Translations under genes and position numbers: made by a program
Notes under the pieces: model-generated
Database searches by the model: none
The model's input: the letters and a program-made list of their open reading frames with translations, nothing else
Told to the model about the DNA's origin: nothing
Assembly (NCBI GenBank): GCA_049791475.1
Contig: JBAQZZ010000016.1
Location: forward strand, 8,395 to 72,394
Direction of reading: 5' to 3'
DNA length: 64,000 nt
Source of the DNA: Flavobacteriaceae bacterium
GTDB lineage: Bacteria; Bacteroidota; Bacteroidia; Flavobacteriales; Flavobacteriaceae
Shown: one piece after another, positions 31,168-62,191 of the stretch
Layout: every line of letters begins with the position of its first letter
How positions within the stretch are numbered: position 1 is the stretch's first letter

Positions 31168-31731
31168 ATGAACAAAACCATAGTATTATTATTACTATTG
31201 ACAATCGGATTTGTATCCTGTAAAAACTCAAAAAAGGAAATTGAAAGAGTTGAAATTGCTAAACAATATTTTAAGGTTCTTGACAATTCAGACTACTCTA
31301 AAATGTCTGATTGGTTTGCGGATAGTCTAACTACAATTGAAGGAGAATATAAACAAACATATTCCAAAAGCGATTATTTGGAGTTTTTAAAATGGGATTC
31401 TGTTTTTGACCCTAACTATGAAATACTTGAAATTGAGCAAGAGAACGGAATTGTAAAAGCAAAAATTTCAAAGATGGACAAAAGAATCTCTTTTCTTCAC
31501 GAAGAACCATTTATAACAAATCAGACTATAAAGTTCAAAAACGACAAAATAATTAGTGTAGATACGGAATACGTGGATTTTAATGAATCGACTTGGGAAA
31601 AGAATAAAAACGGACTTTTAAGTTGGATTGATGAAAATCATCCCGAATTAAACGGATTTATATACGACCAAAAAGAATCCGGAGGAATAAAATACTTAAA
31701 AGCAATTGAACTGTATAAAAACAAAAAATAA
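31168..31731 (+). CDS. hypothetical lipoprotein (NTF2/SnoaL-like guess)
   Basis: 187 aa. Signal 'LLLLTIGFVSCKNS'. No catalytic motif recognised. Confidence 0.5.
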   Translation: MNKTIVLLLLLTIGFVSCKNSKKEIERVEIAKQYFKVLDNSDYSKMSDWFADSLTTIEGEYKQTYSKSDYLEFLKWDSVFDPNYEILEIEQENGIVKAKISKMDKRISFLHEEPFITNQTIKFKNDKIISVDTEYVDFNESTWEKNKNGLLSWIDENHPELNGFIYDQKESGGIKYLKAIELYKNKK

Positions 31732-31734
31732 CGT

Positions 31735-31880
31735 GCTATAACACCTAAAAATAATTGCTAAATTAGTGCTTAACCAAAGGTCTTTGCAGTTTTTCTGCGT
31801 CTGATTTTCCTTCGGAAAATCCTCGCACAAAAACCCGCAACTATTCTGATACAGAAGCGTTAAACGAACTTTTTTAAAAA
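31735..31880 (+). repeat. 3' cassette block with ccTTCgg hairpin, copy 2
   Basis: ctaaaaataattgct (31745-31759) and the 8-bp hairpin gattttcc-ttc-ggaaaatc (31803-31821). The block ends ..ttttaaaaa directly against the valS stop. Confidence 0.4.
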
Positions 31881-34601
31881 CTACTCCAAACTAGCCAAAC
31901 TAGCCTTCAATGTTTCAATTTTCGCCAAAGCATCGGCTTCCTTTTTCTTTTCGCTAGCTACTACCTGCTCTGGAGCACCAGCCACAAAACGTTCATTTGA
32001 AAGCTTCTTTTGAACCGATTTTAGGAAACCTTCTGTATAATTAAGCTCTTCAGTAAGTTTTATAATTTCAGCTTCAACATCAATAGCACCAGCCATAGGA
32101 ATAAAATACTCATTAGATTTTACCCTAAATGTTAATGCACCCTCAACGGTTTGTGATACAGAATCCATGCTTTCTAAGTTTCCTAATTTAGCAATTACCG
32201 AGTCAAAAGTGGTATTGTATTTTTCATTATTAATTACTGAAAAAGGAATAGCATCTTTAAAAGCAATGTTTTTTTGTTTCCTAATGTTTCTAATTCCTGA
32301 AATAACTTCTGAAGCAAAATCAAATTCAGAAATTAAAGTGCCATTTACAGCTTTTGTTTCTGGCCATTTAGAAACTATTAAAGCCTCTTCTGGTGTACGC
32401 TCAGAAATATATTGCCAAATATCCTCTGATAAAAATGGCATAAACGGATGCAAAACTTTTAAATTATTCTCAAAAGCTTCAATTGCCGCTTTGTAAGTTA
32501 TAGCATCAACTGGTTTCTGATATGCTGGTTTTATAATTTCTAATAACCAAGACGAAAAATCATCCATAATCAATTTATAGATGGTCATTAAAGCATCACT
32601 TAATCTATATTTGCTAAACTGATCTTCAATTTCTGCTAAAGCTTTTTGAAATTTAGCTTCGTACCATTCTAAACCAACTTTTGCAGTTTCTGGTTGTGGG
32701 ATACTTTCATGAATTTCCCAACCTTGAATTAACCTGAATGCATTCCAAATTTTATTCCCAAACGCTTTTCCTTGTTGGCAGAGGGCTTCATCAAACATTA
32801 AATCGTTTCCTGCGGCACTACTTAATAGTAATCCAACACGTACACCATCAGCACTGTATTGCTCAATAAGTTTTAAAGCATCTGGAGAATTCCCCAAGCT
32901 TTTACTCATTTTACGGCGTTGTTTATCGCGAACCAAACCTGTTAAATATACGTTTTGAAAAGGTTTTTCATCTTTATACTCGTAACCAGCAATAATCATT
33001 CGTGCTACCCAAAAGAATAAAATATCTGGAGCGGTTACTAAATCATTGGTTGGATAATAGTATTTTATATCCTCGTTTTCTGGGTTTCTTATGCCATCAA
33101 ATACGCTCATTGGCCATAACCATGATGAGAACCAAGTATCTAAAGCATCCGTATCTTGTTTTAAGTCTGAGGCTTGAAGTTGGGCGTTTGAAGTCGCCAC
33201 TCTTGCTTTTTTAATCGCTTCTTCTTTGTTTTCGGCTACTACAAAGTCTTCTTTTCCATCACCATAGAAATACGCTGGAATTTGTTGTCCCCAAAGTAAT
33301 TGACGTGAAATATTCCAATCGCGAATATTTTCCATCCAATGGCGATAGGTGTTTTCAAACTTTTTTGGAAATAAATTTATTTCAGAATCTGCTCCTAAAA
33401 CCGCTTTAATTGCTGGTTTTACTAAGTCTTCCATTTTCAAAAACCACTGATCGCTTAATCTTGGTTCAATTACGGCTTTGGTTCTTTCAGAAGTTCCTAC
33501 TTTATTTATATGTGTTTCCGTTTTTACTAAAACACCAGAATCTTCAAGCTCTTTTGCAACTGCTTTTCTAGCCACAAAACGATCTTGACCTTCAAAATGT
33601 AATCCGAAACTATTTAAAGTCGCATCGTCATTAAAAATATCAATAACTTCAAGATTGTGTTTATCACCTAAAACCTTATCGTTTTCATCATGTGCAGGCG
33701 TTACTTTTAAGCATCCTGTACCAAACTCAACATCAACGTATTCATCTTCAATAATGGGAATTACGCGATTACAAATTGGCACTATGGCTTTTTTTCCACG
33801 TAAGTGCGCAAAACGTTCATCATTAGGATTAATACAAATTGCTGTATCTCCAAAAATAGTTTCAGGGCGTGTAGTTGCGATGATTAGGTATTCCTCCCCT
33901 AAATCCTCCCCTAGCCTCTCCGAAGGAGGAGAACCAGCAAGTTTGCTTTCATAAACTTGATCAATTCCCCCTTTGGGGATTAGGGGGACTATTTTATACT
34001 TAATATAATACAAATTCCCTTGTCGCTCCTCATGAATTACTTCTTCATCAGACAGTGTTGTTTTTGCTTCAGGATCCCAATTTACCATGCGGTAACCTCT
34101 ATAAATTAGTCCTTTTTCATATAAATCAACAAAAACCTTAATTACAGCTTCTGACATATCGTCATCCATCGTAAACTTGGTTCTATCCCAATCACAAGAA
34201 CATCCTAGTTTTTTTAATTGTTCAAGGATTACACCTCCATATTCATCAGTCCAATCCCAAGCATATTTTAAAAATTCTTCACGAGACAAATCATTTTTAT
34301 CAATACCCACCTCCTTTAATTTGGCAACCACTTTGGCTTCGGTAGCAATAGATGCATGATCTGTACCAGGAACCCAACACGCATTTTTACCTTGTAAACG
34401 GGCACGACGTATTAAAACATCTTGTATAGTAACGTTAAGCATGTGCCCCATATGCAACACACCGGTAACGTTAGGAGGCGGAATTACTATGGTATAAGGC
34501 TCTCTATCATCTGGTGTTGAATGAAAATAATTATGAGTCATCCAGTAATCGTACCACTTGCTTTCTACCTGACTTGCATCATATTTTGATGGAATTTGCA
34601 T
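31881..34601 (-). CDS. valS: valine--tRNA ligase
   Basis: HIGH motif 'VLHMGHMLN', 'ATTRPETIFGDTAI', KMSKS motif 'RKMSKSLGN', and a C-terminal coiled coil. The ATG at 34601 (MQIPSKYD..) is preferred over the upstream TTG at 34634. Confidence 0.97.
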   Translation of the reverse strand: MQIPSKYDASQVESKWYDYWMTHNYFHSTPDDREPYTIVIPPPNVTGVLHMGHMLNVTIQDVLIRRARLQGKNACWVPGTDHASIATEAKVVAKLKEVGIDKNDLSREEFLKYAWDWTDEYGGVILEQLKKLGCSCDWDRTKFTMDDDMSEAVIKVFVDLYEKGLIYRGYRMVNWDPEAKTTLSDEEVIHEERQGNLYYIKYKIVPLIPKGGIDQVYESKLAGSPPSERLGEDLGEEYLIIATTRPETIFGDTAICINPNDERFAHLRGKKAIVPICNRVIPIIEDEYVDVEFGTGCLKVTPAHDENDKVLGDKHNLEVIDIFNDDATLNSFGLHFEGQDRFVARKAVAKELEDSGVLVKTETHINKVGTSERTKAVIEPRLSDQWFLKMEDLVKPAIKAVLGADSEINLFPKKFENTYRHWMENIRDWNISRQLLWGQQIPAYFYGDGKEDFVVAENKEEAIKKARVATSNAQLQASDLKQDTDALDTWFSSWLWPMSVFDGIRNPENEDIKYYYPTNDLVTAPDILFFWVARMIIAGYEYKDEKPFQNVYLTGLVRDKQRRKMSKSLGNSPDALKLIEQYSADGVRVGLLLSSAAGNDLMFDEALCQQGKAFGNKIWNAFRLIQGWEIHESIPQPETAKVGLEWYEAKFQKALAEIEDQFSKYRLSDALMTIYKLIMDDFSSWLLEIIKPAYQKPVDAITYKAAIEAFENNLKVLHPFMPFLSEDIWQYISERTPEEALIVSKWPETKAVNGTLISEFDFASEVISGIRNIRKQKNIAFKDAIPFSVINNEKYNTTFDSVIAKLGNLESMDSVSQTVEGALTFRVKSNEYFIPMAGAIDVEAEIIKLTEELNYTEGFLKSVQKKLSNERFVAGAPEQVVASEKKKEADALAKIETLKASLASLE
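33894..33989 (-). repeat. GC-rich multi-hairpin element apparently inserted in frame in valS
   Basis: Encodes VPLIPKGGIDQVYESKLAGSPPSERLGEDLGE. The mRNA-sense DNA has terminal inverted repeats cccctaa/ttagggg and internal hairpins tcccc-aaa-gggga, caagttt-N8-aaacttg and ctcc-ttc-ggag. Length is a multiple of 3. Confidence 0.55.
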
Positions 34602-55594: not shown

Positions 55595-55602
55595 AATACT
55601 GA

Positions 55603-55662
55603 TGTCTCCTCGAGCGCAGTCGAGAGGTTTTTAAAGGTCTCGACTGCGCTCGACCAGACAAA
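55603..55662. repeat. 'empty' palindromic repeat (family C), solo hairpin
   Basis: The left arm tgtctcctcgagcgcagtcgagaggttt (55603-55630) and right arm ggtctcgactgcgctcgaccagacaa (55636-55661/2) are separated by ttaaa. The arms are identical to those flanking the GIY-YIG ORF at 61793/62144. Confidence 0.85.
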
Positions 55663-55667
55663 ATAAT

Positions 55668-57065: not shown

Positions 57066-57075
57066 TAAAACGTCT

Positions 57076-57167
57076 TTACGAGGAACGAAGTGACGTGGTA
57101 ATCTGTAAAATTGAAGTTACAAATAAAAAAGATTGCCACAGCAAATAAAAATTTGCTTCGCAATGAC
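57076..57167. repeat. two-module hairpin repeat (family B), copy 1
   Basis: ttacgaggaacgaagtgacgtggtaatct (57076-57104) and agattgccacagcaaataaaaatttgcttcgcaatgac (57130-57167). Both modules recur at 59927-59955 and 59969-60006. Confidence 0.8.
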
Positions 57168-57183
57168 AAATAAAAAGTAAGTT

Positions 57184-59922: not shown

Positions 59923-60006
59923 GTCATTACGAGGAGCGAAGTGACGTGGTAATCTTAGCGAAAGGAACAGATTGCCACAGCAAATAAAAATTTGCTTCGC
60001 AATGAC
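59923..60006. repeat. two-module hairpin repeat (family B), copy 2
   Basis: gtcattacgaggagcgaagtgacgtggtaatct + agattgccacagcaaataaaaatttgcttcgcaatgac. The second module is identical to 57130-57167. Confidence 0.8.
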
Positions 60007-60023
60007 GGTAAAAATATAAAACC

Positions 60024-60579: not shown

Positions 60580-60596
60580 TTTCCCCAAAGGGGAAA
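60580..60596. repeat. hairpin tttcccc-aaa-ggggaaa
   Basis: Perfect 7-bp stem. The core tccccaaagggg(g)a is shared with the element inside valS. Confidence 0.5.
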
Positions 60597-61792: not shown

Positions 61793-62169
61793 TGTCTCCT
61801 CGAGCGCAGTCGAGAGGTTTATAATGAAATCATATTACGTTTACATACTAAAATGTGCTGATGGATTAACGTATACGGGAATTATTAATAATATCTCAAG
61901 GAGATTTGAAGAACACCAAAAAGGATTAAATAAAAGTTGTTTTACTTTTCAAAGAAGACCTACGGAATTAATATTTCACCAAGAATTTAATAATATAGAA
62001 CAAGCTATATATTTCGAAAAGAAAATCAAAAATTGGAGTGCTAAAAAGAAACTCGCTTTAGCCAATGGAGAATTTGATATGCTACAAATTTTATCTGAAT
62101 GTAGAAACGCAACCCATTCAAAATACAATCCTAATAACAAATAGGTCTCGACTGCGCTCGACCAGACAA
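61793..62169 (+). mobile_element. palindromic repeat (family C) carrying a GIY-YIG nuclease ORF in its loop; putative autonomous element
   Basis: Left arm at 61793-61820 and right arm at 62144-62169, identical to the arms of the empty hairpin at 55603-55662. The ORF occupies the loop to the nucleotide: 3 nt before the ATG, and the TAG shares its G with the right arm. Confidence 0.5.
61824..62144 (+). CDS. GIY-YIG nuclease family protein (COG2827/URI-type)
   Basis: 106 aa. 'YYVYILKCADGLTYTGIINNISRRFEEHQKG' (GIY..YxG..R..EH) and 'FEKKIKNWSAKKK' (E..IK.W.R.KK). Confidence 0.88.
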   Translation: MKSYYVYILKCADGLTYTGIINNISRRFEEHQKGLNKSCFTFQRRPTELIFHQEFNNIEQAIYFEKKIKNWSAKKKLALANGEFDMLQILSECRNATHSKYNPNNK

Positions 62170-62191
62170 ACTACAATAACTTATATTTGAC

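Follow-up and report, generated by a model that had tools for sequence, protein, structure and literature searches.

The 64-kb stretch of Flavobacteriaceae DNA analysed here (the window) encodes on its minus strand a valine--tRNA ligase (ValRS), whose gene valS contains in frame a palindromic insert of 96 nt that is rich in G+C (GC). We consider this insert to be probably a non-autonomous relic of a selfish element that consisted of a DUF559 gene bounded by repeats; the relic would have lost the endonuclease, would be decaying, and would have been inherited within an Algibacter-like clade. The arms of the insert match the inverted repeats of DUF559 genes, complete elements of this type occupy the very same loop of ValRS, and gain and loss at this site are patchy. 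L and P numbers denote retrieved loci and proteins.

The insert and its site in ValRS

The valS gene occupies positions 31881–34601 on the minus strand according to the list of open reading frames (ORFs) and encodes 906 aa from the ATG at 34601. Its product is an exact match to MGC1203444.1, 'MAG: valine--tRNA ligase [Flavobacteriaceae bacterium]', and matches the ValRS of T. thermophilus (1GAX). A sequence-only reading had delimited the palindromic segment to 33894–33989 (minus strand; 96 nt, 32 codons) and had described it as in frame, free of stop codons, richer in G+C than the gene, and built from terminal and internal inverted repeats. All of this is borne out. Read on the minus strand from 33989 to 33894, the insert is GTCCCCCTAATCCCCAAAGGGGGAATTGATCAAGTTTATGAAAGCAAACTTGCTGGTTCTCCTCCTTCGGAGAGGCTAGGGGAGGATTTAGGGGAG, which encodes the peptide VPLIPKGGIDQVYESKLAGSPPSERLGEDLGE; the nucleotide transcription given earlier had dropped 3 nt, the real text being ctcctccttcggagagg. 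The 96-nt windows over the insert reach a GC content of 0.46–0.48, the highest in valS, versus approximately 0.35 for the gene, and its 3' half is among only six 40-nt islands with a GC content of at least 0.6 in the 64 kb (31.7% GC). The three inverted repeats are CCCCTAA/TTAGGGG, CAAGTTT/AAACTTG, and TCCCCCT/AGGGGGA.

Since independent Tara assemblies (six contigs) hold a 906-aa ValRS with a single substitution, located outside the insert, the latter is not an assembly artefact. Protein P0122 also contains the query 40-mer exactly. The predicted RNA fold of the insert is no more stable than that of shuffled sequences (z = -0.88), for which reason a function at the level of RNA structure was dropped as an explanation. 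Rfam returned no family for the window, a 501-nt region (E <= 10), or 11 related loci.

The insert has the layout of a doublet, i.e., two inverted units with a spacer between them. The left arm (33963–33989, minus strand; GTCCCCCTAATCCCCAAAGGGGGAATT) consists of two C-runs followed by the hairpin TCCCC-AAA-GGGGA and encodes VPLIPKGG(I). It is one mismatch away from the widespread unit CCCCCTAACCCCCAAAGGGGGA, with an identical 22-mer in L172, and shares 24 of 30 nt with the unit that stands alone at this site of valS in L004. The spacer (33933–33962, minus strand; GATCAAGTTTATGAAAGCAAACTTGCTGGT) contains an AT-rich hairpin formed by CAAGTTT/AAACTTG, with its arms at 33938–33944 and 33953–33959; it is mostly missing from the closest filled alleles, and L306 has only GATACGAAT in its place. 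In the right arm (33905–33932, minus strand; TCTCCTCCTTCGGAGAGGCTAGGGGAGG), which is inverted relative to the left one and encodes SPPSERLGE, a slightly decayed hairpin, CTCC-TTC-GGAG, is followed by a G-run. This arm is orthologous to the right arm of L306, L240, and L340. Adjoining it, a tandem duplicate of the right-arm end (TAGGGGAGGATT and TAGGGGAGGAAT; 33894–33904, minus strand) encodes DLGE, as read from the sequence. The 12-nt tandem is common to L306, L240, and L340 and therefore predates the divergence of these lineages. Neither of the arms, GTCCCCCTAATCCCC... and ...CTAGGGGAGG, bears a GTAG or CGTC tag. The notion of a chimeric element with arms of two types was dropped, as the left arm aligns with the canonical L306 arm, each stem half having lost 3 nt symmetrically, and as L342 displays the same architecture.

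Comparison with orthologues identifies the segment as a lineage-specific indel, as had been suspected. Of 109 close ValRS fragments, 105 have a loop of 25 residues from SDEEV to ATTRPET, as opposed to 53 in the ValRS of the window; the empty allele is also present in 71 of 80 metagenomic ValRS relatives, so that in these two samples approximately 85–95% of related ValRS lack the insert. Relative to the closest empty allele, that of Confluentibacter (L005; ...TATAAAATTGAAGGCAGCAACGATACTTTAACC...), 33 codons stand in place of the five native codons EGSND. The net gain over empty alleles is therefore 28 residues (84 nt), not 32, the segment having displaced roughly 4 native loop codons.

On the 1GAX structure, the insert takes the place of the three-residue turn 205–207, which joins two strands where the editing domain begins. 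An AlphaFold2 model of a 232-aa query fragment has a predicted local distance difference test score (pLDDT) below 50 at insert residues 106–131, with strands 87–101 and 133–139 on either side. Low model confidence between strands fits a tolerated extra peptide, and the 28 additional residues probably form a disordered loop. The sequence-only reading is supported in its proposal that foreign palindromic DNA occupies a surface loop located at the CP1 editing-domain entrance.

Complete DUF559 elements and occupancy of the valS loop

In L336 and L267, which derive from metagenome-assembled genomes (MAGs) of Paludibacter and Paludibacteraceae, respectively, an uninterrupted valS ORF contains inserts of 504 and 465 nt, both multiples of three, that follow ..YKI and precede ..ATTRPET. 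In both, an entire DUF559 domain (PF04480, E = 1.2e-36) lies between a left and a right repeat. The valS-borne DUF559 retains an intact motif DFVC..KLIIEVDG.YH..GF.VIRFSNEEV, DUF559/MTES_1575 is the only Pfam match in the complete insert, and the ends of the L267 element are inverted repeats identical at 31 of 32 nt. A complete DUF559 gene with its repeats resides in frame in the same valS loop in Paludibacter, Paludibacteraceae, and Prolixibacteraceae. A search with the complete insert yielded more ValRS::DUF559 proteins (P0141, P0142, P0157) and many free-standing DUF559 ORFs of 125–131 aa. PDB entries 3HRL (E = 1e-22) and 3R3P (E = 1e-3), the latter being the homing endonuclease I-Bth0305I, are relatives of the valS-borne domain. 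Features of inteins were not found in these inserts, which start with A, V, L, or S and end with ..GE(A), without an HN-C/S/T junction.

The valS gene of Draconibacterium halophilum (CP048409, a complete genome; L339) also holds a DUF559 element. Its frame breaks all lie in G/C homopolymers of the hairpin units and are probably sequencing errors, i.e., long-read indels that split the gene call; homopolymer-rich arms may thus mimic frameshifts and break up gene calls in assemblies from long reads. At a second site of this valS (L339, ~2470–2640), two further solo units occur in the context ..IPVYYIE-APKSPEGGNWG-YVVAETEEEARKLAVAKHP-SLGGEGGG-FSLKQDEDALDTWF.

The layout of a DUF559 gene plus units extends beyond valS. 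It is fused in frame to an IleRS-like protein, RecG (three proteins, same site), MazG, and a GAF protein, and it is located at the N-terminus of a guanylate kinase and an RNase H. Inverted repeats of 30–36 bp bracket all five DUF559 loci examined, including the intergenic ones between gyrB and ctpB (L338) and between argG and argC in Prevotella (L421). In L421, the DUF559 ORF has a GC content of 0.35 versus 0.49 for the locus. That one and the same DUF559 protein moves across loci was rejected, as P0181 always appears in the same argG-argC context.

A profile of DUF559 terminal inverted repeats (TIRs), built from only ten repeats flanking five DUF559 genes, was used to search the whole 64-kb window. 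Its best match is the right arm (33905–33933, plus strand; E = 2e-5, 21.3 bits), and its second-best match is the left arm (33987–33967, minus strand; E = 0.71). Both matches are inverted with respect to each other, with their outer ends outward. The sole further match listed (60581–60593, E = 4.8) is a simple CCCCAAAGGGG hairpin downstream of an ORF.

The loop is also occupied by forms devoid of an ORF. In the first protein sample, inserts at the same point of valS were present in P0001/L001, P0051/L003, and P0115/L004, the last being a single 24-nt unit. When genomes were scanned for GGGGAG upstream of the codons for ATTRPET, with counts that are lower bounds biased to inserts ending in GGGGAG, at least 20 valS genes of Flavobacteriia proved to have a doublet without an ORF or a single arm in this loop. 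Carriers include Flavobacterium undicola, F. sp. UMI-01, F. sp. PL11, two Algibacter genomes, Mariniflexile fucanivorans, Aequorivita todarodis, Maribacter, Polaribacter, Capnocytophaga catalasegens, and several MAGs. As the scan was swamped by native GGGGAG codons in other phyla, its results are to be read as examples, not as frequencies.

In a neighbour-joining tree of 105 valS fragments, the 28 filled alleles are distributed such that at least 15 state changes are needed. The window allele clusters with L322, L341, and L306/L240/L340, all of which are filled, and this group also comprises a nested empty subclade and derivatives with a single arm; therefore, the insert is ancestral in the group, and some lineages subsequently lost it. 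The four independent insertions suggested by a first small tree were softened accordingly, given that the larger tree displays filled clades with nested losses. Right arm and duplication together are identical to L306 at 38 of 40 positions, the genes being approximately 82% identical. The left arms of the window and L306 align as well, both stem halves being symmetrically shortened, and the AT-rich hairpin is new to the lineage of the window. L341 and the alleles of the type 'LNEDG + right arm' resemble doublets minus the left hairpin, and L342 (TARA) has the same architecture in a decayed state. Across lineages, the inserts vary in sequence and in length, from +5 to +32 residues. The sequence-only reading named as refuting evidence a homologous segment of the same length and ordinary divergence across the family, together with the absence of copies elsewhere in the genome; half of this holds, as some orthologues, namely the Algibacter-like L306/L240/L340, L322, L341, and L342, contain a homologous segment of ordinary divergence. 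From the presence of this segment it follows that the copy was inherited and has not newly landed.

Other sequences occupy the same loop. L002 (540–585), L405, and L408, which belong to a Flavobacterium-like clade adjoining the doublet-carrying clades, contain an in-frame (CACCCAT)n array encoding THHPSPITHH. L294 (Flavobacteriales MAG JAEUTB010000058.1; genome GC 0.59) has three tandem 42-nt units encoding LTPNPSPGERGEMH. An insert of approximately 45 residues in L296 (Pyrinomonadaceae MAG JBGTJP010000019.1, Acidobacteriota) starts with SPPYEGG; this resembles a unit-coded peptide, and occupation of the loop may extend beyond the Bacteroidota.

Origin of the insert and competing explanations

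According to the explanation we favor, the complete element would be a DUF559 (Vsr-like, PD-(D/E)xK) endonuclease gene between TIRs of 30–36 bp, each made up of C-runs and a subsequent GC hairpin. In Bacteroidota, such elements would settle in frame in housekeeping genes and repeatedly in a single ValRS loop, namely the beta-hairpin turn that immediately precedes the editing motif ATTRPET, where extra peptide appears to be tolerated. We infer homing of the DUF559 element into empty valS alleles from the nuclease family, the occupancy of the same site across orders, and the patchy pattern; spread at this site would proceed by site-specific cleavage and repair, possibly in trans. The ORF-less form would have arisen via deletion of the endonuclease gene. 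In the lineage of the window, the element would have been cut down to two inverted arms and a spacer and then inherited vertically, decay having presumably weakened the right hairpin, shortened the left arm, added the AT-rich hairpin, and duplicated the right end. The relic would be translated as 28 extra loop residues. Immediately 3' of the insertion site, Y or F is encoded in 18 of 27 filled alleles versus 33 of 160 empty ones, raw counts that ignore phylogeny; this bias is compatible with target preference or co-conversion.

Several observations weigh against this explanation. The DUF559 gene is absent from the window and from every Flavobacteriaceae locus fetched, and complete valS elements were seen only in genomes of the Bacteroidales/Marinilabiliales type. 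Compared with the DUF559 C-terminus, the spacer scores no better than shuffled sequences in BLAST, and in a hidden Markov model comparison it reaches p ~0.04, mainly due to the arm; the resemblance is not significant, and a descent of the spacer from the DUF559 C-terminus is unproven. No target-site duplication is visible, as the flanks ...AAAATA and GAATAC... on either side of the insert lack a direct repeat. The left-arm profile match is weak when taken alone, and the insertion point in D. halophilum is approximately 4 codons off from the valS site used elsewhere. The bias of the GGGGAG anchor and the disregard of phylogeny in the Y/F counts belong here as well. Finally, DUF559 is missing (tblastn) from the surroundings of approximately 230 unit matches in viral contigs totalling 2 Mb; the hairpin units, which far outnumber DUF559 genes, could be an independent repeat family.

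Because DUF559 is missing from the Flavobacteriaceae loci and the viral contigs, target duplication is lacking, and the spacer is not demonstrably an ORF remnant, the main rival is a family of GC-rich hairpins akin to repetitive extragenic palindromes (REPs) and their paired form, REPINs. An inverted doublet of such an independent family would have landed in valS, and DUF559 genes would nest in the repeats secondarily, as passengers or parasites, their flanks being the split target. We regard this course of events as rather unlikely. It is favored by the wide distribution of the units, mostly without DUF559: exact-pattern scans of viral contigs (GC 0.35–0.72; no DUF559 by tblastn in the 2 Mb) gave 58 copies of CTCCTTCGGAGNGGNNNGGGG, at least 133 copies of CCCCCTNANCCCCNNNGGGGGA, and 42 copies of GGAGNGGCTAGGGGAGG, some of them arranged as inverted doublets, and ORF-less doublets are located in intergenic DNA in L131, L073, and L048. 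Intragenic REPs have been documented, tRNA synthetase genes being among their hosts (PMC3733652). However, the GTAG/CGTC tags that mark the described REP superfamilies are missing from the arms, and no Y1 (RAYT) transposase turned up, with no genome scan aimed at one. Moreover, the repeats bracket 5/5 DUF559 loci, with a consistent ORF orientation where the element is read through, and the complete and ORF-less forms share the same valS loop. One decaying element is a simpler account of this than repeated nesting.

Among the at least 133 viral-contig copies, the 22-nt unit CCCCCT(A/T)ACCCCC-NNN-GGGGGA is located inside long ORFs in approximately 95 cases (L056–L175), e.g., L100:2997–4160, L069:3244–4038, L103:11869–13107, and L074:9996–11030. 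It is read in all three frames, as PLTPxGG, PLPPxGE, and PPNPPRG, on contigs with a GC content of 0.39–0.72. Ten of these ORFs were tested, five of which are non-homologous phage replication initiators (Phage_rep_O, Lin1244_N, DUF1376+DnaB_N, HTH_36), whereas Pfam gave no match for the other five. The position of the unit in the ORFs viewed is mid-ORF, just after iteron-like repeats and, where an N-terminal initiator domain was identified, past this domain. Here, the unit resembles a DNA-level signal and may be part of an origin inside the initiator gene.

The sequence-only reading had compared the insert with Rickettsia palindromic elements (RPEs), which were reportedly described by Ogata et al. 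in 2000. A multicopy element of this kind, mobile within this genome and landed in valS, would agree with the palindromic nature of the segment, with its open reading frame inside an essential gene, and with the solo units and doublets at other positions in the valS of D. halophilum. However, no second copy of either arm exists in the 64-kb window, neither at up to three mismatches nor by profile. The 32-residue peptide had no match in an exhaustive phmmer search, a weak negative in view of so short a query. Furthermore, the copy is common to related lineages and decayed, hence old and inherited. An RPE-like origin is therefore improbable, and the sequence-only reading is partly supported, right as to selfish palindromic DNA tolerated in a loop and wrong as to its kind.

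Growth of the segment from native loop codons by slippage or hairpin-templated duplication, without imported DNA, is very hard to reconcile with arms that match, at profile level, repeats from unrelated loci in other orders, with a left-arm 22-mer within one mismatch of a sequence present in more than 100 unrelated contigs, and with a GC content far above that of the host gene, even though the right end is a 12-nt tandem duplication, the central AT-rich hairpin is lineage-specific, and the loop holds (CACCCAT)n arrays (L002/L405/L408) and the triple 42-nt repeats of L294. Just as improbable is an adaptive, selected insertion domain of ValRS, since the distribution is patchy with nested losses, length and sequence vary as described above, model confidence is low, and it is the DNA palindrome and not the peptide that is conserved, despite the maintenance of the insert in frame in several lineages of an essential gene.

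Comparison with known systems and further palindromes

Among known systems, Vsr-like (EDxHD, related to DUF559) homing endonucleases comprise I-Bth0305I in a group I intron of phage recA and the endonucleases of 'fractured genes' (PMC3239194, PMC2677866). The valS element shares with them the nuclease superfamily, a conserved site in an essential gene, and a sporadic distribution. It differs in the absence of an intron or intein, in a nuclease that is read in frame within the host protein, and in the hairpin repeats at its ends. Like elements of homing endonucleases in general, it occupies the same site in distant lineages, with exception of D. halophilum (~4 codons away), and is sporadic and lacking in close relatives. 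The complete relatives encode an endonuclease of a family with proven homing members, in contrast to the ORF-less copy of the window.

One in-frame, non-splicing homing insert is known (PMC11855218). This insert, ShiLan, likewise lacks splicing domains, is open in the host frame, and is thought to loop out of the host protein. In contrast to the in-frame DUF559 in a bacterial housekeeping gene, its HNH endonuclease is encoded out of frame and its host is a phage; furthermore, its description mentions no hairpin repeats at the ends.

REPs and RPEs have likewise been found in frame in genes, tRNA synthetase genes included (PMC3733652, PMC3184786), and resemble the insert as short palindromic DNA in frame in functional genes that is, in the insert presumably, translated as a loop peptide. 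RPEs are present in many copies per genome (~100–150 nt), both intergenic and in frame, whereas the valS insert is single in the window. REPs are imperfect palindromes of 20–40 nt, one end of which bears GTAG or CGTC (PMC3733652). The insert shares with REPIN-type arrangements its two inverted units plus spacer; it differs in that REPs are tagged and tied to RAYT transposases, while the valS arms are untagged and the gene between the units is DUF559 (5/5 loci). Miniature inverted-repeat transposable elements, finally, are non-autonomous deletion derivatives of TIR-bounded elements (PMC10969869). Two TIRs around a short non-coding core and the same repeats on longer, gene-bearing relatives (L267, L336) are in agreement with this class, unlike the absence of a target-site duplication, a partner that is no known transposase, and a copy apparently fixed at one orthologous site. 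A full-text literature search of incomplete coverage gave no description of repeat-bounded DUF559 elements inside housekeeping genes.

On a broader scale, we advance tentatively, as a good possibility, that Bacteroidota hold undescribed 'naked' in-frame selfish elements, i.e., DUF559 genes with hairpin inverted repeats in essential genes (valS, ileS, recG, gmk, mazG, and others), which lack an intron or intein, are read through as loops, and cycle through invasion, endonuclease loss, hairpin decay, and loss, the window representing a late stage; within the linkers of phage replication-initiator genes, the same hairpin unit may in addition serve as a DNA signal. If so, a homing-type endonuclease would persist in essential genes without splicing by using permissive surface loops. 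This would provide an origin for many unexplained peptides of the type 'SPPSEGLGE / PLTPKGG' and for GC-rich hairpins in low-GC Bacteroidota, as well as a source of lineage-specific indels in aminoacyl-tRNA synthetases. It would also assign a testable role, that of a mobile-element nuclease, to the very large and uncharacterised DUF559 family.

The window contains further palindromes. Between positions 55600 and 63300, same-strand ORFs alternate with repeated GC-rich palindromic blocks (families D2, D5, D10, and D13), e.g., 55603–55665, 57072–57180, 59923–60019, 61793–61824, and 62143–62173. The sequence-only reading had noted the CCTTCGG loop of one insert hairpin in the 3' blocks of a cassette as well; this motif is absent from the 55–63 kb blocks and occurs three times in the window versus 1.75 expected. 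The blocks are unrelated in sequence to the valS insert and unmatched by the DUF559-repeat profile, and a link between both is not supported. One of the three CCTTCGG sites belongs to an AT-rich hairpin at 31795–31825, GATTTTCC-TTCG-GGAAAATC, which is located between the convergent ORF 31168–31731 and valS and is probably a bidirectional terminator.

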